From positions 1-26,614 of the IMG/VR virus record IMGVR_UViG_2703719347_000005: a stretch of 26,614 nt of DNA. One strand, given 5' to 3'. Numbering within the stretch: the stretch's first letter is position 1; each line of letters starts with the position of its first letter. Both the position numbers and the translations under genes were made by a program. This DNA comes from a virus. Its lineage: Duplodnaviria > Heunggongvirae > Uroviricota > Caudoviricetes. Shown piece after piece: positions 1 to 14,100 of this stretch. The notes beneath the pieces were generated by a model that had not been told where the DNA came from, did no database searches, and saw only the letters and a list, made by a program, of their open reading frames with translations.

Positions 1-405
1 ATGGATCAGGTCGTTGTTTTTCAAAAGATGTTTGAGCAAGTGAGAAAAGAGCAAAACTTCTCCTGGTTTTATTCAGAATTAAAACATCACCGTATTGCAC
101 ATTACATTTATTATCTGGCTACGGATAACATCAGAATTATTACTCACGATGATACGGTTTTGTTATTAAGAGGAACCAGGAACCTGTTAAAAGTTAGTAC
201 GACCAAGAACCCTGCTAAAATAAAAGAGGCCGCATTGCTTCATATTTGCGGAAAATCTACATTTCGGGAATACTGTTCAACACTGGCAGGCGCGGGCGTT
301 TTCCGGTGGGTTACTGATGTTAATCATAACAAACGCAGTTACTACGCCATTGATAATACGCTTTTATATATTGAAGATGTAGAAAATAATAAACCATTAA
401 TCTAG
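1..405 (+). CDS. ycgX: Hypothetical 134-aa protein, YcgX-like (DUF1398-type) chromosomal flank gene
   Basis: Complete 405-nt ORF starting at window position 1 in AT-rich DNA. Its length, and its ~700-bp spacing from a 107-aa ORF and an icd 3' fragment, match the ycgX-iraM-icdC arrangement I recall for E. coli K-12. Identification is from memory, not a search. Confidence 0.45.
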   Translation: MDQVVVFQKMFEQVRKEQNFSWFYSELKHHRIAHYIYYLATDNIRIITHDDTVLLLRGTRNLLKVSTTKNPAKIKEAALLHICGKSTFREYCSTLAGAGVFRWVTDVNHNKRSYYAIDNTLLYIEDVENNKPLI

Positions 406-611
406 CTAAAGTTGGATACTTAAGAAATGCTTCATAATTCAGTAAGGCATTAGCATAATGGAAATAAAAGTGCAGAGACTATCTCTATGGATGATTAATA
501 CTGTCTTTTTATTGTCACCCATAAATAATCACCAGACTAATACTATCAACTTGATATTTGAAATGTGATCACTTGACTTTTGATACGTTATTTTATAACG
601 GTTAACATATT

Positions 612-662
612 TATAAAAACAACGGCCGTGCCACACGTCCGTTTCAATACTTAACGCACATG
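612..662 (-). repeat. Copy 1 of a ~50-bp hairpin-containing element; near-duplicate of the icd terminator region at 1478-1527
   Basis: Direct repeat of 1478-1527 at roughly 45 of 52 positions. Contains imperfect hairpin AACGGCCGTG/CACGTCCGTT followed on the minus strand by a T-rich run (revcomp of ttataaaaac). Confidence 0.5.
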
Positions 663-1019
663 TATTTTGGTTTAGTCATCATCCGGTTATATGTATTTTA
701 GCCAGGAACAGGTTAAATCATTCCTATATAACTCAAAAATTGAAACCTTATTCTCATGTCATGCTTATATTCATTATTATCGTTATATAAAAAGGCAACC
801 ATAATGTTTAGCAAATTGGCACAAAGTAGCATAAAGGCTATGTTTTAATTACAGGATGTTCAGTCATTTGAATGTATAACATTATAGCTAAACAAATCTA
901 AAACGAAGTCAATAATTTATTGCTTTCACAAAATCTCATTTTGTTTAACATCCATTGAGATTCCTTGCTTTAAATTTTATTTTATATAAGCCATCATTTT
1001 AATTAATTTATTTTTTTGA

Positions 1020-1029
1020 GGGGGGGGGG
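1020..1029. repeat. G10 homopolymeric tract upstream of the iraM-like ORF
   Basis: Ten consecutive G, preceded by T7 and followed immediately by TAATAT (1030-1035); ~80 bp upstream of the ATG at 1107. Confidence 0.9.
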
Positions 1030-1106
1030 TAATATACTCATATGCAAAATCAAGAAATAAACATCCTAATGAACCATATTAAATACCGTGGGATAAGACA
1101 TAACAA

Positions 1107-1430
1107 ATGAAGTGGATAGTAATTGACACGGTAATTCAACCTACATGTGGTATATCTTTTTCAGCCATATGGGGTAATATGAAAATGATCATCTGGTATC
1201 AATCTACTATATTTCTCCCTCCTGGCAGTATATTTACACCGGTTAAGTCTGGTATTATCCTTAAGGATAAAGAATATCCTATTACTATTTATCACATCGC
1301 ACCATTCAACAAGGATTTATGGAGTTTACTCAAAAGCAGTCAAGAGTGTCCTCCAGGAGAAAGCAAAATAACAAATAAATGTTTACATAATAGTTGCATT
1401 ATAAAAATATGCCCATATGGGCTCAAGTAA
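1107..1430 (+). CDS. iraM: Anti-adaptor protein IraM-like (107 aa)
   Basis: 107-aa ORF in AT-rich DNA ~100 bp from the icd fragment. Size and position match iraM (ycgW) next to icdC in E. coli K-12, and the N-terminus ([12 protein letters not shown]...) agrees with my recollection of IraM. Unverified by search. Confidence 0.55.
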
Positions 1431-1475
1431 TGGGCTTCATATAAATATGCTCGATATGCTATTAATAATATCCAC

Positions 1476-1527
1476 ATAAATAAAACAACGGGCGTGTTAT
1501 ACGCCCGTTTCAATATTTAACACATGG
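1476..1527 (-). terminator. Intrinsic terminator downstream of the icd 3' end (copy 2 of the repeated element)
   Basis: Perfect hairpin AACGGGCGT-gttat-ACGCCCGTT (1487-1509) followed on the minus strand by a GTTTTATTT run; lies just 3' of the icd stop codon (1533-1535). Confidence 0.6.
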
Positions 1528-1532
1528 AGAGA

Positions 1533-1692
1533 TTACATGTTTTCGATGATCGCTTCACCAAACTCTGAACATTTCAGCAGCTTAGCGCCTTCCATCAGAC
1601 GTTCGAAGTCATAAGTTACGGTCTTGGCATTGATTGCGCCTTCCATACCTTTAACAATCAGGTCAGCCGCTTCAGTCCAACCCATATGGCGC
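1533..1692 (-). pseudogene. icd: 3'-terminal fragment of the isocitrate dehydrogenase gene (icdC-like), prophage attachment-site duplication
   Basis: Minus-strand translation reads ...[53 protein letters not shown], matching the Icd C-terminus. Homology to icd stops abruptly near 1692, with an in-frame stop just upstream. Confidence 0.85.
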
Positions 1693-1995
1693 AGCAATAT
1701 CTACGCCATAAATTCTTAAGAGACTGATTTTATTATTTATTTAACCAATGCATCGAATTTTTATTGCCTTAAACTACATTGTTTAACTTGTTGATTTAGA
1801 TAATTTTAAGCTTCGTTTTGGGGAATAAATTATCGCCTTTGACCCAAAACCTATCGGCCATTACAACGTGGCGCCAGGGACTAAAGCTTTGCTCCTGAGC
1901 TAACGCGACGAGCAGTTGTACCTCGACCCGGTTCACTGGGTTACGCGCCAGGGTGGTGGGACAAACCGCCATTGATTAATGCGAAGTACTGATAA

Positions 1996-2029
1996 TATAA
2001 AAAATAAAAACCGGGATAGAGTATCCCGG
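1996..2029 (-). terminator. Rho-independent terminator of the 147-aa cargo ORF
   Basis: Hairpin CCGGGATA-gag-TATCCCGG (2011-2029), followed on the minus strand by T-tract TTTTTATTTTTT, 8 bp after the stop at 2037-2039. Confidence 0.6.
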
Positions 2030-2036
2030 CTCAAAG

Positions 2037-2480
2037 TTAGTGCACCGTAAGCTTTGATGGATTATCAGAGATGTCGAATGAAAACTCATCCCCATCTTTA
2101 TTGAAGCTGAAAGAATCAACATTATTTGTCTTAACGGACACTAAATCACCTAAAGGCCCATATACGCAAGTTGCCGTTCCACCGTTAGTAAACAACACTT
2201 CCTTGGTCACACCGGATACATTGGTAATTGTATTTACAGAAACCACGTTTGCTAAATTTTTTGGATAAGCATATTTGATTGACGAATAGTTGATGGTGAG
2301 CACGGTTCCACTATTGCTAATGGCAGCTCGATGGCCCCCATTCATCTCAGCCACCATACTCCCGTCTGGATAATAAGTCACTTTATGCCCATTTTGTTCA
2401 ATAACTTTTTTCCCGTCGGAATACTCAGTTACTGTATTAATACCCAACTGAAAAACTTTCGGTTGTTCATTATCTGCCAT
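2037..2480 (-). CDS. Hypothetical protein (147 aa), prophage cargo near the attachment site
   Basis: Uninterrupted ORF with its own terminator. No signal peptide or recognisable motif; Gly/Asn/Thr/Val-rich, beta-rich appearance. Confidence 0.5.
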   Translation of the reverse strand: MADNEQPKVFQLGINTVTEYSDGKKVIEQNGHKVTYYPDGSMVAEMNGGHRAAISNSGTVLTINYSSIKYAYPKNLANVVSVNTITNVSGVTKEVLFTNGGTATCVYGPLGDLVSVKTNNVDSFSFNKDGDEFSFDISDNPSKLTVH

Positions 2481-2666
2481 TTAATTCCCCTTTTTTTCTC
2501 CTGAAGAAACCCCATCAACCTTTACTTACTTTGTTAATATACACAAATATTTTTATAAATCCGCAGCCTAGATCAAATAAATGCTCATTGTTTTCAGCTG
2601 AGCCCTATCGAACTAATACAGAAATGAACTAAACGAATAAAATTTTTCTATTCTAGAAAATTGATA

Positions 2667-3932
2667 CTACTTAACCTGTAACAGGTCGGAGTATCTTGTA
2701 GTATAGCAAGGTGAAAGCATTTCCCGCTTCATCTGCCAGGCCGTTTGGATCCCCTGCCCTGCAAAATACAGCGTTCCCCTTCCGTCTTTCGCATTGAGAT
2801 GGTCGAGTACTTCCATCAGTTTCTCGCTATTCCGCCGTGGCACGTTATCATCAAACAAGTTTAGCTGGGCCACCCCCTGACTGTAGAAATCCCCCAGCAT
2901 CACTCCGGCTTTCTGGTAGCGATACCCGTCTCGCCAGATTGCATCGAGACATTCCGTCGCCGCTGTGATTATGTCCCGACTGTCCTGGGTCGGGGTCAAT
3001 AGTTTCACTGATGCACTATTGCCGTAGTACGGCTCATTCAGAGCAAATGGGCTGGTTTTGACGAATGCAGAGATAAAGCGGCAGTACTGATGCTCACCAC
3101 GGAGTTTCTCCGCGGCACGGGATGCGTATAAGCATATCGCCTGGCGCATCTCTTCGTAGGTGGAAATCCGCTGCCCAAAGCTGCGACTACAGACAATCTC
3201 CTGCTTTACCGGCGCGAACTCCTCAAGACCGAGACATGGCTCTCCGCGTAGCTCCCGCACGGTTCGCTCCAGTACCACATTAAAATGCTTCCGGATAAAA
3301 CGGATATCGGTATCCGCCAGTTGCAGTACAGTTTTAATCCCCATGGCCTCCAGTTTTTTACTGATGCGGCGCCCGACGCCCCAGACCTCATCCACCGGAA
3401 GCAAAGCCATCAACTTCCTCTGTCTTTCCAGGTTCGACAGATCCACCACGCCTCCGGTCTGCCGCTGCCACTGTTTCGCGGCGTGATTGGCCAGCTTCGC
3501 CAGGGTTTTAGTCTGGGCTATGCCGACGCCGACCGTTAGGTGTGTCCTGCGCAGAACCGTCTCGCGAATTTCCCTGCCAAAGTCGGTAAGGTCGCGACAA
3601 TTCCGAACTCCTGTCAGGTCGCAAAATGCCTCATCAATACTGTAAATTTCGCAGCGTGGAGAGAGTTCCTCCAGCGTTGTCATCACTCGGTTGGACATAT
3701 CGGCATAAAGCTCATAGTTGCTGCTAAACGCGATAATACCGTGCCGGCGAAACACGTCCTTTTGCTTGAAATAAGGCTCACCCATTTTGACGAAGGGCTT
3801 CGCTTCTGGCGAGCGGGCGATCACACAGCCGTCGTTGTTTGACAGAACGACCACCGGACGCCCTTTCAGGTCAGGACGAAATACGGTCTCGCACGATGCA
3901 TAAAATGAATTCACATCACAAAGCGCAAACAT
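2667..3932 (-). CDS. umuC: Translesion DNA polymerase V catalytic subunit UmuC (Y-family polymerase)
   Basis: Starts MFALCDVNSFYASCE with the SIDEAFCDLTG catalytic motif, ~421 aa. ATG is at 3930-3932, one nt after the umuD stop. The ORF-track 5' extension to 3992 is rejected. Confidence 0.9.
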   Translation of the reverse strand: MFALCDVNSFYASCETVFRPDLKGRPVVVLSNNDGCVIARSPEAKPFVKMGEPYFKQKDVFRRHGIIAFSSNYELYADMSNRVMTTLEELSPRCEIYSIDEAFCDLTGVRNCRDLTDFGREIRETVLRRTHLTVGVGIAQTKTLAKLANHAAKQWQRQTGGVVDLSNLERQRKLMALLPVDEVWGVGRRISKKLEAMGIKTVLQLADTDIRFIRKHFNVVLERTVRELRGEPCLGLEEFAPVKQEIVCSRSFGQRISTYEEMRQAICLYASRAAEKLRGEHQYCRFISAFVKTSPFALNEPYYGNSASVKLLTPTQDSRDIITAATECLDAIWRDGYRYQKAGVMLGDFYSQGVAQLNLFDDNVPRRNSEKLMEVLDHLNAKDGRGTLYFAGQGIQTAWQMKREMLSPCYTTRYSDLLQVK

Positions 3933-3933
3933 C

Positions 3934-4353
3934 TTAGCCAGCTGATTTAATGATGTACGTAACCACCCCGAACACGTCGAGAGTGTCCTCACTACCGACG
4001 ACTATTGGCGAATATGCAGGGTTCATTGGGTTAAGCTGAACCCGCGGATGCAGTTGCAGCTTCTTAACGGTGAATTCCCCATCCACAGCAGCAATAACGA
4101 TATCGCCATGAACTGCTGTTCTTGAGCTATCCACGACCAGAAGATCACCTTCCCCTATGCCTGCGTCTTTCATGCTGTCGCCGGCGGCTTTGACAAAATA
4201 CGTCGCACTTGGGTGGTTAACGAGCAACTCGTTCAGATCAATACGTTGCTCAACATAATCCTGCGCTGGACTAGGAAAGCCGCACTGCACAAGGTCACTG
4301 TACAACGGGAGCAGCATGATCTGGCGTAACTCAACGGGCGTGTAGAACTGCAT
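3934..4353 (-). CDS. umuD: UmuD, LexA-like self-cleaving accessory subunit of polymerase V
   Basis: 139 aa from ATG 4351-4353 ([13 protein letters not shown]...). Conserved Cys-Gly cleavage site (LVQCGFPSP), Ser (GDSMKD) and Lys (TVKKLQL) present. Confidence 0.9.
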
Positions 4354-4372
4354 AATAAACTCGCTCACAAAA

Positions 4373-4392
4373 TACTGTTTTTATATACAGTA
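4373..4392. promoter_or_regulatory. LexA (SOS) box upstream of umuD
   Basis: TACTGTTTTTATATACAGTA: canonical CTGT-N8-ACAG palindrome, 20 bp upstream of the umuD start codon. Confidence 0.8.
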
Positions 4393-4567
4393 GTTTTATT
4401 CGCTAATCTAATCAATAGAGGTTTTAACTATCAATCAGGAACACAGAGGGGGGGGAAACCAGTCACCTTTGAGCCCCTGATATTGGTTTCACTTAGTGAT
4501 TATGTTGTCTATATGCCAGCTTTGAACTATCTTTTCTCAAAACCTGCTACTGCAAAATGGATATAAG

Positions 4568-4693
4568 ATGTCACAGACGGACTTGCTGATTGTTGTTTTT
4601 ACGCTGGGCATTTTAGCCTTTGGCTATTCCATATGGTTCATTTCGAACAGAATACTCTGCTCAATATTTCATAGACTTACAAAGAATATATGA
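4568..4693 (+). CDS. Small hydrophobic ORF (41 aa; MSQTDLLIVVFTLGILAFGYSIWFISNRILCSIFHRLTKNI), putative small membrane protein
   Basis: ATG-initiated ORF below the ORF-track cutoff with one predicted transmembrane helix. Divergent from umuD and on the same strand as the terminator at 4900-4934. Weak RBS. Confidence 0.25.
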   Translation: MSQTDLLIVVFTLGILAFGYSIWFISNRILCSIFHRLTKNI

Positions 4694-4816
4694 ATTGGGA
4701 TGGTATAGACCAAAATTCATGGTCCTTGCTCCTCGACGTCGGAAGGTACTTACAGATCATCTTCGCTCTTAACCTATCACATCGGCACCTACTCCATGAT
4801 GTAACAGCTCAGACCA

Positions 4817-4934
4817 GAAATATCTGGAAGCTTTAGGCATCTTCTTGGAAGATAGACGAGCGCAAAGACGCACACAGCAATGATGTTATGTAGTATTTTC
4901 CCCTTGAGTGTGCCTGCTCAAGGGGATTTTTTAT
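4817..4934 (+). repeat. Direct repeat copy 1 (~118 bp), homologous to 7965-8079, ending in an intrinsic terminator
   Basis: Shared GAAATATCTGGAA, a 22-bp identical core GCGCAAAGACGCACACAGCAAT (4860-4881 and 8008-8029), and a terminator hairpin with conserved loop. Confidence 0.6.
4900..4934 (+). terminator. Rho-independent terminator (plus strand) overlapping the 3' end of the invertase gene
   Basis: CCCCTTGAG-tgtgcctg-CTCAAGGGG followed by ATTTTTTAT. The minus-strand version has no U-tract, so it is not the invertase terminator. Confidence 0.6.
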
Positions 4935-5487
4935 CGCCGCATTGTACCGGCAAATTTTTGTAAATAGTCTTCACATCTACGCCTATCACATCTGCGATCT
5001 GTTGCCGAGTAGCGCCGTTCTCCAGCATTCTGCGGCACCGCTCCACCACTTCTTCAGTCATTACCCGGCGGCGGCCGCCGACTCTCCCCTGCTCCCTCGC
5101 TGCGGCTAACCCGGCTCGGGTACGCTCCACTATCAGCTCGCGCTCCATTTCTGCCAGGGCGCTCATGACGTGGAAGAAGAATCGCCCTGCTGGCGTCGAA
5201 GTGTCGATCGAGTCGGTAAGGCTGCGGAAATTCACCCCACGCGCCTGCAACTCTGACACGAGCGTAATCAGATCGCGCACGCTGCGGCCCAGCCGATCCA
5301 GTTTCCAGACCACCAGCACATCACCCGGGCGGAGCCGTCGCAGCGCTCGCTTCAAACCTGGCCGCCGGGCATTCTTCCCGCTGGCCATATCCTCGAAAAC
5401 CAGCTCACATTCTGCGCGGATCAGCGCGTTTTTCTGTAAATCGAGGTTTTGATCCCCGGTTGATACCCTCGCATAGCCAATCAGCAC
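4918..5487 (-). CDS. Serine DNA invertase, Gin/Hin/Pin/Cin family
   Basis: MLIGYARVSTGDQNLDLQ...VVWKLDRLGRS...FRSLTDSIDTSTPAGRFFFHVMSALAEMERELIVERT closely matches Gin/Pin over the catalytic domain. GTG start at 5485-5487 with SD AAGGAG 7 nt upstream. C-terminal ~45 aa diverge from what I recall of Gin/Pin. Confidence 0.9.
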   Translation of the reverse strand: MLIGYARVSTGDQNLDLQKNALIRAECELVFEDMASGKNARRPGLKRALRRLRPGDVLVVWKLDRLGRSVRDLITLVSELQARGVNFRSLTDSIDTSTPAGRFFFHVMSALAEMERELIVERTRAGLAAAREQGRVGGRRRVMTEEVVERCRRMLENGATRQQIADVIGVDVKTIYKNLPVQCGDKKSP

Positions 5488-5510
5488 GATCTAACTCCTT
5501 GAAATAGCTG

Positions 5511-5539
5511 ATTGTAAAAAGCCGCGGCCATTCGCTCAA
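5511..5539 (-). promoter_or_regulatory. Putative sigma70 promoter of the invertase gene, -35 overlapping crossover site L
   Basis: On the minus strand: -35 TTGAGC (5539-5534), 17-bp spacer, -10 TACAAT (5516-5511). The -35 hexamer lies inside the left half of the 26-bp site. Confidence 0.3.
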
Positions 5540-5556
5540 ACCCTCGTTTGGGCGAA
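5531..5556. other. gix/hix-like 26-bp recombination site L
   Basis: TTCGCTCAAACC-CT-CGTTTGGGCGAA: two 12-bp half-sites (TTC....AAACC) around a 2-bp core, as in gix/hix/cix. Exact reverse complement occurs at 11080-11105. Confidence 0.65.
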
Positions 5557-5923
5557 GCCTCTTTTTGGAGCAAAAAACATGGCCGAACTTAACCCGCCAC
5601 TGGGCACGACGACGCCGGAAATATTCATGGACAACGTTAAGCGCGCTGACGAGCTGGTTAACGGTCCGGCCGGAACGGTTGACGACCGCGGCGGTGAACC
5701 ACTCGATACCTGGCGCCAGATGATGGCGAAAAACGATGAGGTCAGGCAGAACCTGATCCCGCTCAGTAAGCAATACCAGACGCTGGCAGCGGCGCAGGCG
5801 GATATCGCGAATATTCCGGTGGGGTCGACCACGTATTACCGTAGCCCGGATGACAACGCGTTAGCTGTAGAAGTGATCAATAACGCCGGTACGCTGCAGC
5901 CTACCGGGCGGAAAATGCCATCT
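5531..5923. repeat. Left arm of ~390-bp inverted repeat (site + RBS + first ~115 codons of fibre A)
   Basis: First 48 bp are 100% identical to revcomp of 11058-11105; the next ~345 nt are roughly 85-90% identical by eye to the fibre B 5' end. Confidence 0.85.
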
Positions 5924-7918
5924 TATTCTTCGCTACGCGGGGCGAACATTCTGTTTGATGCTCTGAATGAATATTCAGCAAATGATCCTAAATTCGGTGC
6001 GTGGGACTGGTATCGCGGAGCAGTGATCACCTTCAGCACTACTGATGCCAATATTTCGTTACCGACTCCAGTGGCACAGTATTCCGGCGTATGGTCTGCA
6101 GATAAATATTATGACCTTGCCCGCCTGCCTGTAAGGGTTGGTGATAAGTTAACCTTTTCCGTGCTGGCGTGGTTCCAGGATGCCGGTGCTATGTTCCATA
6201 TTTTCTGGATGTCCACCGCTGGCGCTGTTATTTCGTCTAAATCACAGCTTGCTCTGGCCGCAGGTATAAATACGCCGGTTATCACAGATGTCATTCCATC
6301 CGGCGCATCCTACGTCAGGATCCGGGTTGAAAATACTACGGCAGGGATATTTAAGGTCGGTGCTTATGCTGCTGCGTTGGGGGCTATTCAGCCTGATTTT
6401 GTTCGCGCCACGCCGGATAAAACTTATCTGTCAGCCGTCATATCATCCGGTATTTCGGGGTTAACATCACGCGTCGATGCGCTCCAGGGAGCTATCTCTG
6501 TTGGTTATGCTTATGCAGCTGCCTGGCAAGTCGGGAAATTTATCAACCCAACTACAGGGGCCATCACTGATAACTCTGCGCTGAACTGCGCAATCATTCC
6601 GCATTCCGACGGGGATGGCTGGCTGGTGACAGCCCTTGTGACAGGATCGGCGACTGCTCTGGCCGTGTACATGAACAGCGCCGGGATGGTATTGGGTGTT
6701 GAAGGGCGGGGAACGGCAACCCCGCAGCAGTATACTAATTATCGTCTTAACGTTCCTGCCGGGACAACACAGATCGGTATAACGGGTCGTAATTCTGCGG
6801 AAATTGCTGTTAAAAAACTTGCTGTCGTTGAGACGGCCAAAGTACTGGCATCGATCGATTCTCTGGATGTCAGGGTACAAACAATAGAGGACTCTCTTGT
6901 TTATGATTTTATTAAACACGACGTCACGATTACCTCAGGAGCATATATAAACCGTGCTGATGGCAGTGTGGTGGCAAATGCTGCATTTGACTGTGCAATT
7001 TTTAATTACACAGCAGGAGACCGCTGGAAAGTCACAGCGAGGGTTAACGGCAGTGGAGTTTCGCTCGCGGTGTATATGAACAGTGCCGGGACGGTTATCG
7101 GCACCGAAGGGAACGGTACTACAGAATCGGTGGACTACACCGATTACGAGCTAACACCTCCTTCCGGCACCGCCAAAATCGGGATCACCACCCGTATAGC
7201 CGTCCCCATTATTGCCAAAAAATATGTAGTCGTTCCCGGTGGTAGCACGGTCAGTCCGTGGTCTGGAAAAGTCATCGATGTGATGGGTGACAGCAACGTT
7301 GCTTATAACAAATGGCAACCTCTTGTCGCGGCAGAACTGGGCTGCACTTTTCTGAATCACGGGGTCGGTGGTTCGAAAATAGCCAAACCGGATAGCTCCT
7401 CAACGCAAATCAGCATGTGCGACGATGTGCGAATCAATGCTCTGGATACATCGGCGGCGGCGTGGATTTGCGGTCCGTGGGCAACAAACGACTGGGCGCA
7501 AAATATTCCGATTGGAAGTATCACCGACTCAGTGAATACAACCGTTTACGGCGCGCTGAACATCATCGCTCAGAAACTGCGGGCGCGGGCCCCAACAAAA
7601 CCTATCCTGTGGGCCACGCCGTTCAATGGGGACTATGATTCTCCACGTTCAGCGGCATGGGTTGACGGTGAAACAAATGGCTATGGGCGGGTTTCTGACT
7701 ATGCAGCGGCCATACGCGCCGTGGCGTTGCGATATGGATTCCCCCTAATAGACCTTAACGCTGACTGTGGCTGGACAAAATTCAATAGCACTAGTTTTTT
7801 ATTAACCGAGGGGGATACAAATCCGTCCCGCATCCACCTCAATGCGGACGCGGGGCCTGTGCGTATTTCCTCACTGATAACCGATCGGCTTACTGCCCTA
7901 CAGAAACTGGTGGGCTAG
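5579..7918 (+). CDS. Alternative tail fibre A (779 aa): shared N-terminal anchor, three repeated ~100-aa modules, C-terminal GDSL/SGNH-like esterase domain
   Basis: N-terminus MAELNPPLGTTTPEIF... shared with fibre B for ~115 aa. C-terminal region carries MGDSNVA, HGVGGSK, WATNDW and a late His (SRIH), reading like SGNH hydrolase blocks. Currently antiparallel to the tail operon. Confidence 0.7.
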   Translation: MAELNPPLGTTTPEIFMDNVKRADELVNGPAGTVDDRGGEPLDTWRQMMAKNDEVRQNLIPLSKQYQTLAAAQADIANIPVGSTTYYRSPDDNALAVEVINNAGTLQPTGRKMPSYSSLRGANILFDALNEYSANDPKFGAWDWYRGAVITFSTTDANISLPTPVAQYSGVWSADKYYDLARLPVRVGDKLTFSVLAWFQDAGAMFHIFWMSTAGAVISSKSQLALAAGINTPVITDVIPSGASYVRIRVENTTAGIFKVGAYAAALGAIQPDFVRATPDKTYLSAVISSGISGLTSRVDALQGAISVGYAYAAAWQVGKFINPTTGAITDNSALNCAIIPHSDGDGWLVTALVTGSATALAVYMNSAGMVLGVEGRGTATPQQYTNYRLNVPAGTTQIGITGRNSAEIAVKKLAVVETAKVLASIDSLDVRVQTIEDSLVYDFIKHDVTITSGAYINRADGSVVANAAFDCAIFNYTAGDRWKVTARVNGSGVSLAVYMNSAGTVIGTEGNGTTESVDYTDYELTPPSGTAKIGITTRIAVPIIAKKYVVVPGGSTVSPWSGKVIDVMGDSNVAYNKWQPLVAAELGCTFLNHGVGGSKIAKPDSSSTQISMCDDVRINALDTSAAAWICGPWATNDWAQNIPIGSITDSVNTTVYGALNIIAQKLRARAPTKPILWATPFNGDYDSPRSAAWVDGETNGYGRVSDYAAAIRAVALRYGFPLIDLNADCGWTKFNSTSFLLTEGDTNPSRIHLNADAGPVRISSLITDRLTALQKLVG

Positions 7919-7964
7919 TTAACAGTGCTTATCGCGTAGTAGTGTTTCTAAAATGCTGTAATAA

Positions 7965-8079
7965 GAAATATCTGGAAATGTTTTGAATTATCCAGGAGTA
8001 TATCAACGCGCAAAGACGCACACAGCAATAATGTCATTCATCGCTTTTCCCCCGGCGTGCCTCCGGGGGGATTTTTTAG
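7965..8079 (+). repeat. Direct repeat copy 2 (homolog of 4817-4934) downstream of fibre A
   Basis: See copy 1. Stem sequence differs from copy 1 with compensatory changes (CCCCTTGAG/CTCAAGGGG versus CCCCCGG/CCGGGGG) while the loop (GTGCCT) is conserved. Confidence 0.6.
8049..8079 (+). terminator. Rho-independent terminator downstream of fibre A
   Basis: CCCCCGG-cgtgcct-CCGGGGGG followed by ATTTTTTAG on the plus strand. Confidence 0.6.
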
Positions 8080-8173
8080 TCCTTTATGACGTCGTCTTGT
8101 CCCGTCCTCAGGGAAGCTATAGTGGTCTTATTTCACGTGGTAACTGAAACTGAATACAGTACGAGTCAGCTTA

Positions 8174-8890
8174 TTACGCGATTGATAAAATCCCTTCATA
8201 GCTCTGAGTGACGAGGTCAACCATATCCATTTTTTCAGCCTGAGAGAGTATTCCGCCCGCCCACACCCCTGTCATTGCAATATCCACAGCGCCTAAAAAA
8301 TCTGACGTGATATAGGAGTAGCCAGCATAAATCGACTTATTCGGAACAGGGATTGCGCGGGCGGTAACAGCGACCTGTTCAGTCGATAACAGCTCACTGT
8401 TCGTCATTTTATGAAGCTGAACCATAGAGTTATTCACATCGAGGAAAACCAGATGGAATTTACTGGTGTCCAGTGGAGTCGCGAGGGTGGCGGTTGCTGT
8501 CCCGCTTGACCGCCCCACAATCCCCCTGATTTGAGGAATGGCCGGTTCAAAAACAAACGTATCCCCCTGCGGTTGTACAGCAGAGCCGAGATAGTTACCC
8601 ATGCCCAGCGCTCTGGTAGTGCTTTTAGGCCGGAGTAACACCATCATGGTTTTAACCGGGTTATCCGTGACTTTCAGATCATAACCCCCCGCACCAACAC
8701 CACCCGTAAACCAGTACGTGTTGATGACAGGTGCCCCCACTATGGTTGGCTCTTCCCCAAAAATAGCCCCAAAGTTCTGGCTGCCAAATGTGGCAATGCT
8801 CGCGATAGACGGCTGCGGATAACTCGAACCAATAATACAGTCATCATCCCAGACGGCATCAACATTAATAGATAATCCCTGATTAGACAT
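8174..8890 (-). CDS. Hypothetical protein (238 aa) co-transcribed downstream of fibre B; possible fibre accessory or assembly protein
   Basis: Start ATG 8888-8890 (MSNQGLSINVD...), 7 nt after the fibre B stop, with GAGG SD overlapping that stop. The ORF-track 5' extension to 8989 overlaps fibre B and is rejected. No family recognised. Confidence 0.5.
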   Translation of the reverse strand: MSNQGLSINVDAVWDDDCIIGSSYPQPSIASIATFGSQNFGAIFGEEPTIVGAPVINTYWFTGGVGAGGYDLKVTDNPVKTMMVLLRPKSTTRALGMGNYLGSAVQPQGDTFVFEPAIPQIRGIVGRSSGTATATLATPLDTSKFHLVFLDVNNSMVQLHKMTNSELLSTEQVAVTARAIPVPNKSIYAGYSYITSDFLGAVDIAMTGVWAGGILSQAEKMDMVDLVTQSYEGILSIA

Positions 8891-8897
8891 AAGTACC

Positions 8898-11057
8898 TCA
8901 CAACGTGATTTCAAACATGACGCAATAGTTATCCATACGGATAACCTCGCTATTAAGGGTAAAACTGATAATGTCGCCCTGGCTGTCACGCAGACAACCG
9001 CGCGGCCCGGTCAGGCGACCCGGTGACTGGCCGGTGGTGCCGCCGTGAAAGGCATACTGAAGAATGGCCCCGGCAGGGATATCCGCTGCCGTTGAGACAG
9101 TCACCGCGTCATAACGGATATTGAGGCTGGTCAGCGGGATAATCGCACGTGTGTCAGGGTGCAGTAGCCGGAAACCATAATTACCCGGATCAGAAACAAT
9201 GCTGGTATCAAAGCTCAGCCGACCCACCGGATTCAGCCACACCGTAGCGGCGCGGCCCTGGCGTTGATGACTAACTGGCATCAGTGGTTTTGCCGCTTTG
9301 CCGTCAACCAGCGCCCGCTTTTCCATCACGGAAATATAAAGCCCCTGAATATAGGAACTTCTGGCGGTGAGGTGTGCGCCATCCGTGTAATCGTGAATGT
9401 ACATCGGGTTCGTGAGATAGACATTTTCGCGTGTCTGCGCCAGCTCCAGCAGCGCCATCGGAATGGTGGGATAGGCTGTGTTCGGCGTCCGGTTTATCCA
9501 GCTGCTGAACTGATAAACAAAAATCGGCACATGGACTTCTTCGCCGCACACAGCTGAGGCGTGGGCATCGATCCGCTGTTGCATGGTGTCGAAAATAGCC
9601 TGATAGTCTGCTTTGGTGGTGCCTTTCGTCTGGTCTGCTTCGCCCTGCATCCAGTACATCGCCACAGGCCGGTAGGTTTTCCCGAGCTCCTGAGCGCGGG
9701 CGTAACCATAACTGATATCATCGAAAACTCGCTGAATGTACTTTCCGGGATACGCCGCCAGCACATCAATGGGTTGACCGCCCTCCGCCGGAACAGAACC
9801 CAGAATGATCAGATCATCCGGGTTAAAGCCATAGTTCTCGGCAATCATCAGTTCGTACCAGCCGCGAATGCTGGCCCCCATTGGGGTTTCCCATGCCTGG
9901 CCGTTATCGGTGTTTTTATACGTCTCGACGTAGGGAACCAGCTGAGCATGGTTTTCTGCCGAAGTGCCGGAGCCATCCTGCGCCCGTGCCCCACCGATAA
10001 AACGCAATGCGGTATACAGCGCGGCTATCGTAATCAGGGCCTGAGTATTCACGCCAGCGGCAAGCGATTGTCCGTAACCGATTTTATGGGCAATATCCGG
10101 CAGGCGTGAGTAAATGGACTGATTAAAATAGCGCAGAAATTCAGGGGAAATAATCGCTTTAACTTCCAGAGTTTCGGCTTTCAGCGATTTTACCTCTCCA
10201 TGATTCGCTTCAATTTTCCCCGCAGCAAATGCCCCGTTTTTTTTGATACCCACAGCCGGACGATTTAACGTATCACGCCACGCCATAACGAAATCGCGGA
10301 ATGTCGCAGTAGAAATGCTGGCGTTGGCTGGTAACCCTAAGATACTGGCAATCGTAAGATTGTTGATCTCAGCCTTCCCTGATTTCAGTACCCCTTTTTT
10401 ATTAATGGCAAAACAAAGCCGTTTAAGGGTGTCATAAACTGAAACAGCGTTACCGTCAGCCACTAATGATAAAGCAGAATTCCCGATATTCAGACGTGAT
10501 GACGAGATGATCGACGAAATAAATTCATCCGCTGAGAGCTTTTTTAATTCTGCTTTATTCGCCTTAATCCACCCGGCAAGCAACCGGCCCGCCTCATCCA
10601 GCCCTACCGAATAATTTTTTCGTTCATCCATAAAGGCAAGAGACATACCCGCTGGCGCATTCTGGCTGAACGTTGCTCTGATCAAATCAGTCATGATATT
10701 GACCAGCTCCTGAGATGGCATTTTCCGCCCGGTAGGTTGCAGCGTCCCGCCGTTATTCATGTACTCGTCCGCCAGCGCCCAGACGTCCTGGCTGCGAACA
10801 TAGGTCGTGGAGCCAACGGGGATATTCGCGATATCTGCCTGCGCTGCCGCCTCATTCATATACTGCTTGCTGAGTGGGATCAGGTTCTGCCTGACCTCAT
10901 CGTTTTTCGCCATCATCTGGCGCCAGGTATCGAGCGGTTCACCTGCGCGGTCGTTAATCGTTCCGGCCGGACCGTTCACCAGTTCGTCAGCGCGCTTGAC
11001 GTTATCCAGGAATATTTCAGGCGTCGTCGTTCCCAAAGGCGGGTTAAGTTCGGCCAT
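8898..11057 (-). CDS. Alternative tail fibre B (719 aa): shared N-terminal anchor, SASA-like acetylesterase domain, extra C-terminal domain
   Basis: N-terminal ~115 aa shared with fibre A. Residues ~325-585 carry YGQSLAAG, WMQGEAD and DGAHL, consistent with SASA/DUF303-type SGNH esterases. Colinear with the tail operon, so this is the presumably expressed fibre. Confidence 0.7.
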   Translation of the reverse strand: MAELNPPLGTTTPEIFLDNVKRADELVNGPAGTINDRAGEPLDTWRQMMAKNDEVRQNLIPLSKQYMNEAAAQADIANIPVGSTTYVRSQDVWALADEYMNNGGTLQPTGRKMPSQELVNIMTDLIRATFSQNAPAGMSLAFMDERKNYSVGLDEAGRLLAGWIKANKAELKKLSADEFISSIISSSRLNIGNSALSLVADGNAVSVYDTLKRLCFAINKKGVLKSGKAEINNLTIASILGLPANASISTATFRDFVMAWRDTLNRPAVGIKKNGAFAAGKIEANHGEVKSLKAETLEVKAIISPEFLRYFNQSIYSRLPDIAHKIGYGQSLAAGVNTQALITIAALYTALRFIGGARAQDGSGTSAENHAQLVPYVETYKNTDNGQAWETPMGASIRGWYELMIAENYGFNPDDLIILGSVPAEGGQPIDVLAAYPGKYIQRVFDDISYGYARAQELGKTYRPVAMYWMQGEADQTKGTTKADYQAIFDTMQQRIDAHASAVCGEEVHVPIFVYQFSSWINRTPNTAYPTIPMALLELAQTRENVYLTNPMYIHDYTDGAHLTARSSYIQGLYISVMEKRALVDGKAAKPLMPVSHQRQGRAATVWLNPVGRLSFDTSIVSDPGNYGFRLLHPDTRAIIPLTSLNIRYDAVTVSTAADIPAGAILQYAFHGGTTGQSPGRLTGPRGCLRDSQGDIISFTLNSEVIRMDNYCVMFEITL

Positions 11058-11105
11058 GTTTTTTGCTCCAAAAAGAGGCTTCGCCCAAACGAGGGTTTGA
11101 GCGAA
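10713..11105. repeat. Right arm of ~390-bp inverted repeat (fibre B 5' end + RBS + site R)
   Basis: Reverse complement matches 5531-5923; outermost 48 bp are identical. Confidence 0.85.
11080..11105. other. gix/hix-like 26-bp recombination site R (inverted relative to site L)
   Basis: TTCGCCCAAACG-AG-GGTTTGAGCGAA on the plus strand, the exact reverse complement of site L. Confidence 0.65.
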
Positions 11106-11133
11106 AGAAAAGTTGAAAGGGATTTTTTTGGTA

Positions 11134-14100
11134 TTAAGCAGCGTCGCCGGGGTATGTGGCGTCGTCGTACTGGTAGAACGATTCGAGGTATTCTTTTGCG
11201 GTGACCTGGCAGGTTCCGTCAGACTGCGGGGCGATCTCCTCTACAATGGCGTCGTAGACGTGGCGCGTTGAGCCGCAGAACACCAGGCGGATCGGCTCGA
11301 TGGTTGCCGACGACAGGTCAACCCGCATGGGATCATCAAACTCGCTCAGGTGCGGGACTGACAGCTGAAAATCACCCACCCGGCTCGCCACCATCAGCCC
11401 GGATGCAGAGCCATCCTGATAGCGGATTAGCGCGCGGGGATTTTCGAAAGACCAGTCCAGCGGCTCCGTAACGGTGAACGTTGTCACGCCACCAGCCGTT
11501 GTCATCGCCTCCACCAGACAGGAAATTGTGTTGTTACCCGGAATATCATCCGTGAGCACAATGCGATCGCCCGTGTTGTAGCACAGCGCGTCCAGCTCGG
11601 TAGTGGTCTGGAACGTCACCCGCTGCTGCAGGTATTTCATCAGGCGACGCATGCCGATCTGGTAGGCGTGATCCTGATTCAGTACCCCATCGAGTTTGTA
11701 GTTCTCGATTTTCACCGGCGTGGGATTATCAGGCGTCCGGCATTTAACGGTCTCCTCCGCCCAGGTAGTCCCGTTGATGTATGTCACGTCGACGCCATCA
11801 AAATCATCGTCGGACGGTACGGTAAATCCGCTCTGCAGCTCCTCCACCATCTCATGCGGAGTGATCACGCCAGTCCAGGGCTTAATCCCCTCACGGTTGA
11901 CCGTCGCCAGGCCATCACTCAGCAGAAAACGTGACTTCCCGGCATTGGCTATCTTCTGCAGCATTTCCAGCGCTGAGATACTGTCGCCCGTGGCGAAATC
12001 AAAATTTTCGCCCCGTGGCGTCCAGTACGCGGATTCCAGCGCGTTGATGGTGTCGACGTCCATCTCCAGCCCCAGCGAGTTCCCGACATGCAGCAGCGCC
12101 CCCGAAATGGTTCTGGCGGTTCCTGAGTCGTAGGCCCGCGTGGCCACAACGTTTACGCGGCGGTCCGACTGCGCCGCCAGCTTCCCACCCGTCTCAACGG
12201 TCACCGCCATCAGCGACACGCCGGGATAGGATGAAGGGCGCGTCAGCAGTCGCCCGCGCAGTGCCTGCCAGTACATCGAATCCCTGGCGTTGTTTGAGCC
12301 CTGCTCATTGCGCCGACGGCAGCGAACCTCTACCAGTCCCGGAGAACTGAGGGTGATCCGCTCAGTGAAACCTAACCCGTTGACGTTTTTCAGCGCATAC
12401 TCGCCCTGGTGACTCACCCACCCCGATCCGGAACCGTAGACGCGATACTGTATCTCCCACTCAACGTGGCGGATCCGTTTTTTGCCCTTACTGTCAAAGC
12501 CGCAAATACCGTTCGGGAAAGAGAAATTCACCTCGAACATATCGACGGTCTCATTTTCAGGGCAAACCAGGAACGGCCCCAGCCAGCTCAGCGTGTCGTT
12601 AAGACCAGTGGCCTCATAGTCGATCATCGTCCGGGCGGTGAATCCCGGCCATGACTCATCAACGGCACCGTTAACCAGGCGCGCCACCGTCGCCGTTGTG
12701 CCGTCGGTCGAGACAATGCGGTACTCATTCCCGCGGTGAGCAAGTGAAAGCCGTTGCACCCCCTCCGGCATGCCGGAAAAGGCCGTTCCCGTGGCGCTGT
12801 TATAGGCAAGCGTCACATTCGCCGTTACCGCCGGGCTGCCGCCGGTTGATGCCGTGCCGGAGGTGTAAACCGGGGCATCACCGAAAACAGCTGCAGGCAG
12901 CGAAGAGGACGTGATCTCCCCACCCGCGAACGGACTGGCCGACTCGGTTATCAGTACGGTGCCGCCGTTGTCCTGCGCAACCAGGCCGGCGCCAGTGAGT
13001 CCCTCGGTGATGGCCGCCAGCAGTCCCGACATCGAGACGTAGTTAGCCACCAGCGACACCGGGTAGGTAACTCCCTGCCAGGTGATCGTGAACGTGCTGG
13101 AGCTGGTCGAAAAATCGTAGGTGGTCGGGGCCGCACTGGCCTGGACTTTTGCCACACTCCCCCCGGTGCCGGGCACTGCAGCCTGACCGGGGGTATATGA
13201 CGCGATAAACAGATCGTAATCGACAGAGTTAAACCCCAGCGTCACCGGCATTCCAACCACCGGCGCGATCTCCGTCAGCAGCGGGCTTGCGATAACGCTG
13301 TATCCGGCCGCCGTGGTGATCTGGTAGTTCGCCTGGGCTTTCAGTTCGACCACGGCGCCAGCGACCCAGCTGGGCGGCAGTGAGTTATCGTTCTCGTCAT
13401 TATCGTCATCATCATCCGTATCCAGCCCGGTAAACGTTACGCTCGAACCGGATACGGTCATGCTGTCTGCGATAATATCGTCGGCATCCGGCGACGTCTG
13501 GGCCATATCCAGCCCGGTACCGGATGATGTCCCTCCGACCTCAGTACTATTGACCCAGTTTTCACTGCGCTCATCGCCGGAAACGTCCGCGCCTGGTGGA
13601 AAATAGGTGATGTTGAAACCCGGCAGCGTTGAAGCTGGCGTACTGCCTACCCTGATATCGCCAGTGGTATAAATCAGTTCACCGACACCGAGACACAGCA
13701 GCATCTGGACGCGCATTTTCGTAGGATCGGCGGCATCGAACCGGGTAACGGGCTGGACCACATAATCCGGGTAGATACGCACCCGGCCAAACACCTCACG
13801 AATGGCATCACCGAGTTTTGCGGTGTTGGCCCGCGCCGGGTTCAGGTCGAGACTCCGCCCTGTGGATGAGGTATAGCCGCCCGTATCGATGCGGCTCATC
13901 AAAACAAGCGAATAGGCTGCAGCGGCAACGGAGATACCGACGCCGATCCACGCGATTGTGGCGGCCTCCAGCCCGAAGGGGACCGGATAAAGCCGTACAT
14001 CACTATCAGGGCGGATCACACAGGTAGCCCACTCGCCTGGCGGAATTGACTGACCCTCAACCTCAACGGTCAGCGGTGGGACATCCCGATCGGTATAGTT

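Follow-up and report, generated by a model that had tools for sequence, protein, structure and literature searches.

In classical invertible segments, the crossover takes place inside the open reading frame (ORF) of a tail fibre, and a constant N-terminal part is combined with variable C-terminal parts. A second group of related systems consists of fibres that carry an esterase. Klebsiella prophages commonly encode SGNH-domain fibres (Otwinowska et al., PLoS Biol 2026, PMC13123978), two of them, 164_08-KL2 and 174_38-KL55, hydrolyse p-nitrophenyl acetate (PMC13123978), and gp63.1 of phage G7C (Prokhorov et al. 2017, as cited in PMC13123978) is the precedent for an O-antigen deacetylase. Here, we analyzed a stretch of 26,614 nucleotides from a virus of the class Caudoviricetes (IMG/VR record IMGVR_UViG_2703719347_000005, positions 1 to 26,614; hereafter, the window) with a focus on the gene of one tail fibre, fibre A, whose C terminus had been read as a GDSL/SGNH-like esterase domain in an initial annotation made from the sequence alone. 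We propose, with a probability of about 0.78, that fibre A serves as a side tail fibre for a temperate siphovirus of the lambda-like, TipJ type that is integrated in Escherichia coli, that its SGNH/GDSL esterase head deacetylates a host surface polysaccharide, and that its expression is phase variable. The domain assignment is correct but was already present in public annotation, and it is of a well-documented kind. More notable than the SGNH domain itself is the inversion switch of two esterase-tipped fibres, fibre A and fibre B, to which this gene belongs.

The features of the fibre A gene are given below in amino acids (aa) and nucleotides (nt). Conservation was counted in 107 full-coverage homologous domains, and in 106 of them for the position three residues before the block V His.

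5579-7918, + strand: ORF of fibre A (779 aa), the same protein as RefSeq WP_057077864.1
5579-5938, + strand: N-terminal anchor module, aa 1-120, where the PHROG matches lie; common to fibre A, fibre B and 164_08-KL2
6533-6829, + strand: internal repeat domain 1, aa 319-417, 51% identical to repeat domain 2 (E 5e-32)
6938-7234, + strand: internal repeat domain 2, aa 454-552, from pairwise comparison with repeat domain 1
7253-7918, + strand: C-terminal SGNH/GDSL hydrolase domain, aa ~559-779, plus the stop codon
7292-7294, + strand: codon of Ser572 in the GDS of block I, predicted nucleophile (S in 106/107)
7361-7372, + strand: Gly595-Gly598 (G-V-G-G) of block II, predicted oxyanion-hole Gly (G595 in 102/107, G598 in 101/107)
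7487-7492, + strand: Asn637-Asp638 in the T-N-D of block III, predicted oxyanion-hole Asn (N in 106/107, D in 107/107)
7826-7837, + strand: Ser750-Arg-Ile-His753 (SRIH) of block V, aa 750-753, with the His kept and the Asp at -3 replaced by Ser
8047-8071, + strand: terminator-like hairpin followed by a T run, 3' of fibre A

The esterase domain had been placed from nt 7262, which is codon 562, to nt 7918, which is the final base of the stop codon. The identical protein WP_057077864.1 carries the RefSeq/PGAP name "SGNH/GDSL hydrolase family protein". By megablast, the gene was found at 100% identity in 10 complete E. coli genomes, and the exact protein occurred in 455 blocks of the assembly collection. 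PHROG tail-fibre families matched both the N-terminal part and the head. The assignment to a tail fibre was also borne out by gene order and by the anchor, since fibre A is the TipJ-adjacent gene in half of the examined assemblies and its anchor is 87% identical to that of an active esterase fibre. Between anchor and head, the repeat was detected by direct pairwise comparison, while a blastp self-comparison did not report it. Pfam contained no family for either of the two ~100-aa repeat domains, the first of which may be a beta-sandwich or carbohydrate-binding-like module, and NCBIfam had no family for fibre A, fibre B or a 238-aa ORF located next to fibre B.

The initial annotation had named a hidden Markov model search as a check on the esterase domain. 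This search returned the Pfam family PF13472 (Lipase_GDSL_2) on aa 571-757 with an E value of 2.4e-9 and 38.4 bits, above the gathering score of 32.9. Among PDB sequences, phmmer gave GDSL matches to 7bxd (2.1e-9), 3dc7 (2.3e-8) and also 4q7q. A profile built from 24 family sequences reached 7bxd at 1.8e-35, and the solved neighbours 7bxd, 3dc7 and 3bzw ranged from 1.8e-35 to 1.2e-26. The same profile matched the SGNH domains of two phage virion proteins, 8egr_K and 6v8i, the latter being the tail-associated lysin gp59 of staphylococcal phage 80alpha (E 1.3e-16). An AlphaFold2 model of aa 551-779, built from a 51-sequence alignment, showed alternating strands and helices with a mean predicted local distance difference test (pLDDT) score of 94.4 and a predicted template modelling score of 0.91, and the head is predicted in this model to adopt a three-layer alpha/beta/alpha fold with a parallel beta-sheet. 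When the model was compared with the PDB by Foldseek, 71 matches were obtained at E<=0.001, led by 7bxd (E 1.2e-15, template modelling (TM) score 0.76), 3dc7 and 3bzw, the TM scores of these three being 0.74-0.76. The listed matches, including the whole top of the list, were overwhelmingly SGNH/GDSL-type esterases, and acetyl-xylan, carbohydrate and sialate acetylesterases were found lower down.

Relatives of the head were found mostly at the same place in other proteins. Among predicted viral structures (BFVD), 113 proteins matched at E<=0.001, mostly with the C-terminal domains of 400-1100-aa phage proteins, including the tail spike of Pectobacterium phage Possum. When 1.84 billion cluster representatives were scanned exhaustively with HMMER, 2,963 relatives were recovered at E<=0.001. 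The 107 aligned homologues are mostly proteins of 500-1000 aa with a C-terminal SGNH domain; homologues carry precomputed PF13472, PF00657 and PF16255 assignments, and some are labelled 'lysophospholipase L1-like esterase'. A word-indexed search with the single domain gave 7 proteins, one of them frameshifted (P0006). The Pfam, PDB, profile, fold and conservation results agree with each other, and the identity of the domain is thus far beyond chance.

All four motifs named in the initial annotation lie inside the 779-aa ORF at the positions claimed. VIDVMGDSNVA covers aa 565-575 (nt 7271-7303), and its G570, D571 and S572, kept in 105-106 of the 107 domains, align with the GDS of 7bxd and 3dc7. 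HGVGGSK covers aa 594-600 (nt 7358-7378), where block II reads N593-x-G595-x-x-G598. In PWATNDW (aa 633-639, nt 7475-7495), block III reads A635-T-N637-D638, the Gly of GxND, found in 98/107, being replaced by Ala in fibre A. The late His, H753, is kept in 106/107 and aligns with the DxxH His of 7bxd, 3dc7, 3bzw and 6v8i. The check for fold and Ser-His-Asp triad named in the initial annotation gave a divided result: the SGNH fold was recovered by both AlphaFold2 and Foldseek, but the sequence does not show the canonical triad, as Ser750 replaces the Asp.

Only 15/106 homologues have an Asp at -3, and 55/106 have one at -5 (consensus D-G-x-x-[IL]-H-P-N). In the clade of fibre A, an additional 4-aa insertion (TNPS) precedes the His (E-G-D-T-N-P-S-R-I-H), and AlphaFold2 predicts a beta-hairpin for this stretch. 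The homologue alignment showed no conserved acid at -2 to -4 from His753. E744 and D746, considered as candidates for the third triad residue, are not conserved even in the closest clade. Because the DxxH Asp is missing, a classic Ser-His-Asp triad is not demonstrated and the catalytic centre is non-canonical. Judging from these residues, the head probably works as a Ser-His dyad or with an acid located elsewhere. Dyad SGNH esterases, such as those of the CE2 family, are active.

The closest solved structures, 7bxd (Ca_00815), 3dc7 (L. plantarum lp_3323) and 3bzw (B. thetaiotaomicron putative lipase), align with fibre A in blocks I, II and III and in the block V His. However, they are stand-alone bacterial proteins with DxxH, whereas fibre A is a virion protein with SxxH and an inserted hairpin loop. 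The two Klebsiella fibres are, like fibre A, temperate-phage fibres with a C-terminal SGNH-superfamily esterase head; we compared the first 400 aa of each, so that the heads lie outside the alignment. 164_08-KL2 starts with MAELNPPLGTTTPEIF... and has the same anchor as fibres A and B (PMC13123978 supplement), with 87% identity over 120 aa to fibre A and 77% over 145 aa to fibre B. Its head is SASA-type (PF03629), like that of fibre B and unlike that of fibre A. 174_38-KL55 shares PF13472 with fibre A, but its N terminus is unrelated. Furthermore, the host here is E. coli, in contrast to the Klebsiella prophage fibres of PMC13123978. As far as it is described in that paper, G7C gp63.1 is a receptor-binding SGNH esterase that deacetylates polysaccharide and does not depolymerise it, and we take it as the model for the mechanism of fibre A; as described there, it is the tailspike of a virulent podovirus, while fibre A is a long fibre of a temperate phage.

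The fibre A gene is part of an invertible segment with the following features.

4918-5487, - strand: intact gene of a serine DNA invertase (Hin/Gin family) of 189 aa, next to the segment but not part of it
5531-11105, no strand: invertible segment, 5,575 bp, inverted relative to its flanks in other assemblies
5531-5556, + strand: hix-like 26-bp imperfect palindrome, TTCGCTCAAACC-CT-CGTTTGGGCGAA, at the left end, 22 nt upstream of the fibre A ATG
11080-11105, - strand: second, identical 26-bp hix-like site, marking the right end and lying 22 nt before the ATG of fibre B
8898-11057, - strand: fibre B, 719 aa, with a SASA-type acetylesterase head and a beta-rich C-terminal domain, facing fibre A
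8174-8890, - strand: 238-aa ORF directly downstream of fibre B, inside the segment
11134-14202, - strand: TipJ-type host-specificity protein of the central tail tip, whose gene closes the fixed part of the tail operon next to the switch

The invertase matched the Resolvase domain (E 1.6e-49), HTH_7 and the DNA invertase family phrog_125 (1.8e-85), and its N terminus reads GYARVST. Two identical hix/gix-like sites of 26 bp in inverted orientation were found where 0 are expected by chance. The ends of the segment form a 393-nt inverted repeat of 85% identity (5531-5923 and 10713-11105) that encodes both anchors, which are 77% identical over 137 aa. When the window was compared with E. coli 5CRE51, positions 5531-11105 were 100% identical yet inverted relative to both flanks, and in this strain, as in other assemblies, the fibre A gene lies directly downstream of the TipJ gene. 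Ten loci with an identical fibre A (99.75-100% identity) were evenly divided, five being collinear with the window and five carrying the segment at 99.96-100% identity but inverted, and the breakpoints in the inverted loci were exactly 5531 and 11105. When similar places were counted in, the orientation could be read in 27 contigs, with fibre A behind TipJ in ~21 and fibre B in 6. The ~54-56 mismatches between the arms all stay with the segment in both orientations, which confines the exchange to the first 68 identical bases, in which the site is contained. This speaks for site-specific recombination and makes the homologous alternative that we considered, RecA-mediated exchange between the 393-nt arms, unlikely.

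In the window, it is fibre B that lies behind TipJ, and fibre A is oriented away from the operon and diverges from the invertase gene. A scan of the window found no promoter-like site upstream of fibre A on its own strand. Because fibre A faces away from the operon and has no such site, it is most likely silent in this window. We hypothesize that the invertase flips the segment at the two 5'-leader sites and thereby brings either fibre A or fibre B behind TipJ. Expression of the fibres would then be phase variable, and the orientation of the segment would decide which of the two heads the progeny of a lysogen carry. A T-rich run follows each hix-like palindrome (5531-5566 and 11070-11105), and the two are intrinsic-terminator-like by a consensus scan; such an element at the site could reduce the transcription that runs on from TipJ to the fibre gene.

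As a single sequence, fibre B gave a sub-threshold match to SASA (E 0.0055) and nothing meaningful in the PDB. Its family was more informative. PF03629 SASA was found in 25 of 32 fibre B relatives, and one SASA-matching relative, a Cupriavidus protein of 40% identity, bears the NCBI name sialate O-acetylesterase. The family alignment contains invariant G-Q-S, Q-G-E-x-D and D-x-x-H blocks, and the fibre B profile matched the tailspike of cyanopodophage Pan3 (9vyh, 2.5e-18) and the esterase 2apj in the PDB. In agreement with this, the AlphaFold2 model of fibre B (pLDDT 92.4) had 9vyh as its best fold match (1.9e-22) and also matched the carbohydrate acetylesterase XAC1771 and the mammalian sialic acid esterase SIAE. 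From these profile and fold results, we infer that the two heads alternated by the switch are acetylesterases of distinct SGNH-superfamily branches. There is about an even chance that the prophage alternates the two as complete acetylesterase fibres and so splits its progeny between two receptors defined by O-acetylation. The 238-aa ORF behind fibre B had no match in Pfam, PHROG or NCBIfam, and fibre A has no partner gene equivalent to it; it may encode an assembly factor specific to fibre B or a distal subunit.

This arrangement resembles the G segment of Mu, the C segment of P1 and the P segment of e14 (Hin/Gin/Cin/Pin systems), in which a serine invertase likewise adjoins a segment with opposed alternative fibre genes and the inverted 26-bp sites are likewise imperfect palindromes with an AAACC core. 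Unlike in Mu and P1, each site is placed in a 5' leader, 22 nt before the ATG, and the crossover does not fall inside an ORF. Instead, two complete genes are swapped, each with its own anchor (85% nt identity) and both headed by an acetylesterase. The SGNH-fibre literature that we searched contains no mention of a whole-gene swap through 5'-leader sites, and two recent papers on Klebsiella receptor-binding proteins, including PMC13123978, make no mention of invertases or inversion. The same platform is nevertheless present in an isolated temperate phage of Klebsiella, KPP5665-2 (MF695815), which shares the invertase/anchor junction at 85.5% nt identity and, at 6537-13600, has the layout found here: an invertase, two convergent fibre cassettes and a TipJ-like gene. 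Its heads differ, however. One cassette encodes a 1,220-aa 'O-glycosyl hydrolase', the other a protein misannotated as 'flagellar biosynthesis protein', and neither has a fibre A-type head. The KPP5665-2 cassettes thus indicate that the switch platform carries different enzyme heads in different phages.

The esterase head itself acts as a module that can be exchanged, being present on both sipho-type and myo-type tails. In E. coli MS 85-1 (4763-7174), a fibre of 803 aa with 75% nt identity to fibre A over aa 56-750 belongs to a myovirus-type prophage with a baseplate J/gp47 module, and its head is 84% identical with all motifs intact. This fibre argues for an exchange of the distal fibre between tail types. 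In a prophage of E. coli strain 219, the match begins at window position 7259, at the SGNH domain boundary, and the 5' edge of the fibre A head coincides with a module-exchange boundary. The locus of strain 219 (198-6919) is a decayed cassette with fragmented SGNH/GDSL ORFs and an ISKox3 insertion, and its invertase is a pseudogene with an internal stop. In sequenced phage isolates the head is rare. Only 10 of 50,697 phage records matched it by tblastn, and the best full-length phage match, in Pseudoalteromonas phage HS6, was 39% identical.

By analogy, polysaccharide O-deacetylation is the most likely function of the fibre A head. This reading draws on G7C gp63.1 and on the Klebsiella prophage SGNH fibres that hydrolyse p-nitrophenyl acetate. 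According to the proposed mechanism, the ~120-aa anchor would dock fibre A onto the TipJ-type tail tip, and a shaft with the two tandem ~100-aa repeat domains would present the head. Ser572 would act as the nucleophile and His753 as the general base, with Gly595/598 and Asn637 forming the oxyanion hole. At adsorption, the head would bind an O-acetylated polysaccharide of the host, either O-antigen or capsule, and then deacetylate it, which would expose or create the receptor or let the virion move through the glycan layer. The proposal in the initial annotation of an enzymatic, receptor-modifying fibre is in agreement with the published SGNH receptor-binding proteins (PMC13123978), with fibre A linked to them by homology, and both its catalytic activity and its substrate are predictions.

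Several observations weigh against this reading. The canonical Asp of DxxH is replaced by Ser750, while the nearest solved structures 7bxd, 3dc7, 3bzw and 6v8i all have DxxH, so that the activity could be reduced or mechanistically different. The solved relatives 7bxd, 3dc7, 3bzw and 4q7q are described only in generic terms (GDSL-like, uncharacterized, putative or possible lipase). The functional analogy to G7C gp63.1 draws on fold and superfamily; G7C was not among the tblastn matches of the head in the 50,697 phage records (E<=1e-5), and because of this gp63.1 appears to belong to a different SGNH subfamily. It could be argued that the head is a catalytically dead, lectin-like module which binds a glycan, possibly an acetylated one, and keeps the fold as a scaffold. 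The lost Asp and the 4-aa insertion before the His would fit such a module, and the two active Klebsiella fibres have different heads (PMC13123978), so that their activity is not directly transferable. However, Ser, both oxyanion residues and His are kept in 101-107 of the 107 domains, including the 84% identical copy on another tail type, and a scaffold that only binds would not be expected to keep precisely the catalytic positions so strictly. Moreover, the loss of an acid is compatible with activity in Ser-His dyad enzymes of the CE2 kind. We therefore consider a dead module unlikely.

Somewhat less likely still is that the head acts on an ester other than a carbohydrate one, either as a (lyso)lipase on outer-membrane lipid or lipid A acyl chains or as a cell-wall O-acetylesterase that aids penetration. 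The name of the Pfam family, 'GDSL-like lipase/acylhydrolase', the 'lysophospholipase L1-like esterase' label of homologues and the profile match to the GDSL domain of the 80alpha tail-associated lysin all point in this direction. Yet the domain is located at the distal end of a long, repeat-bearing side fibre and not at a central tip or needle, several of its structural neighbours are carbohydrate, acetyl-xylan or sialate acetylesterases, and the studied SGNH receptor-binding proteins of Gram-negative phages, G7C gp63.1 (cited in PMC13123978) and that of Pectobacterium phage Possum (PMC9569702), are reported as polysaccharide deacetylases. Finally, the position of the gene in this window, facing away from the tail operon and with no promoter-like site upstream on its own strand, could mean that fibre A is a silent, decaying spare copy without a current role. 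This appears very improbable, since the ORF is intact and has 100% identical copies immediately behind TipJ in other assemblies, the invertase and the two recombination sites are likewise intact, and each orientation is commonly found. Polysaccharide O-deacetylation by a fibre expressed in one of the two orientations is thus the reading that we favour.

Other features of the window lie around the switch. A direct repeat of 74 nt and 74% identity occurs at 4816-4889 and 7964-8037 (+ strand), with the shared core CGCGCAAAGACGCACACAGCAAT. The copy at 7964-8037 comes after fibre A within the segment, the one at 4816-4889 is outside the segment and past the invertase gene, and each is followed by a terminator-like hairpin on the + strand (4899-4926 and 8047-8071). 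Rfam gave no match in the window, including in this repeat, which may have been left over from the duplication of a fibre 3' end. A short ORF (4569-4691, + strand) located upstream of the first repeat copy encodes a hydrophobic peptide of ~41 aa, MSQTDLLIVVFTLGILAFGYSIWF..., and may represent a moron for a small membrane peptide. The region from the invertase to the window end contains a PmrD-family gene (PF11183; 1107-1430, + strand), which is annotated in two related loci (L008 and L013) that are collinear with this stretch, and a umuD/umuC-like pair encoding an S24 peptidase and a Y-family polymerase (2667-4368, - strand). The translesion polymerase genes look like prophage cargo beside the tail-fibre switch.

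The SGNH domain of fibre A adds little on its own, and two points go beyond the domain call. The first is the missing canonical Asp, which makes fibre A suitable for asking whether an SGNH enzyme can be active when DxxH has no Asp. The second is the inversion switch that exchanges the whole genes of two different acetylesterase fibres. The findings place an E. coli prophage in the Klebsiella-type lineage of capsule/O-antigen "shaving" fibres. With two different acetylesterase fibres under the control of an invertase, and both states frequent in sequenced isolates, this prophage offers a tractable system for asking whether the host range of a temperate phage is defined by the O-acetylation of polysaccharides.

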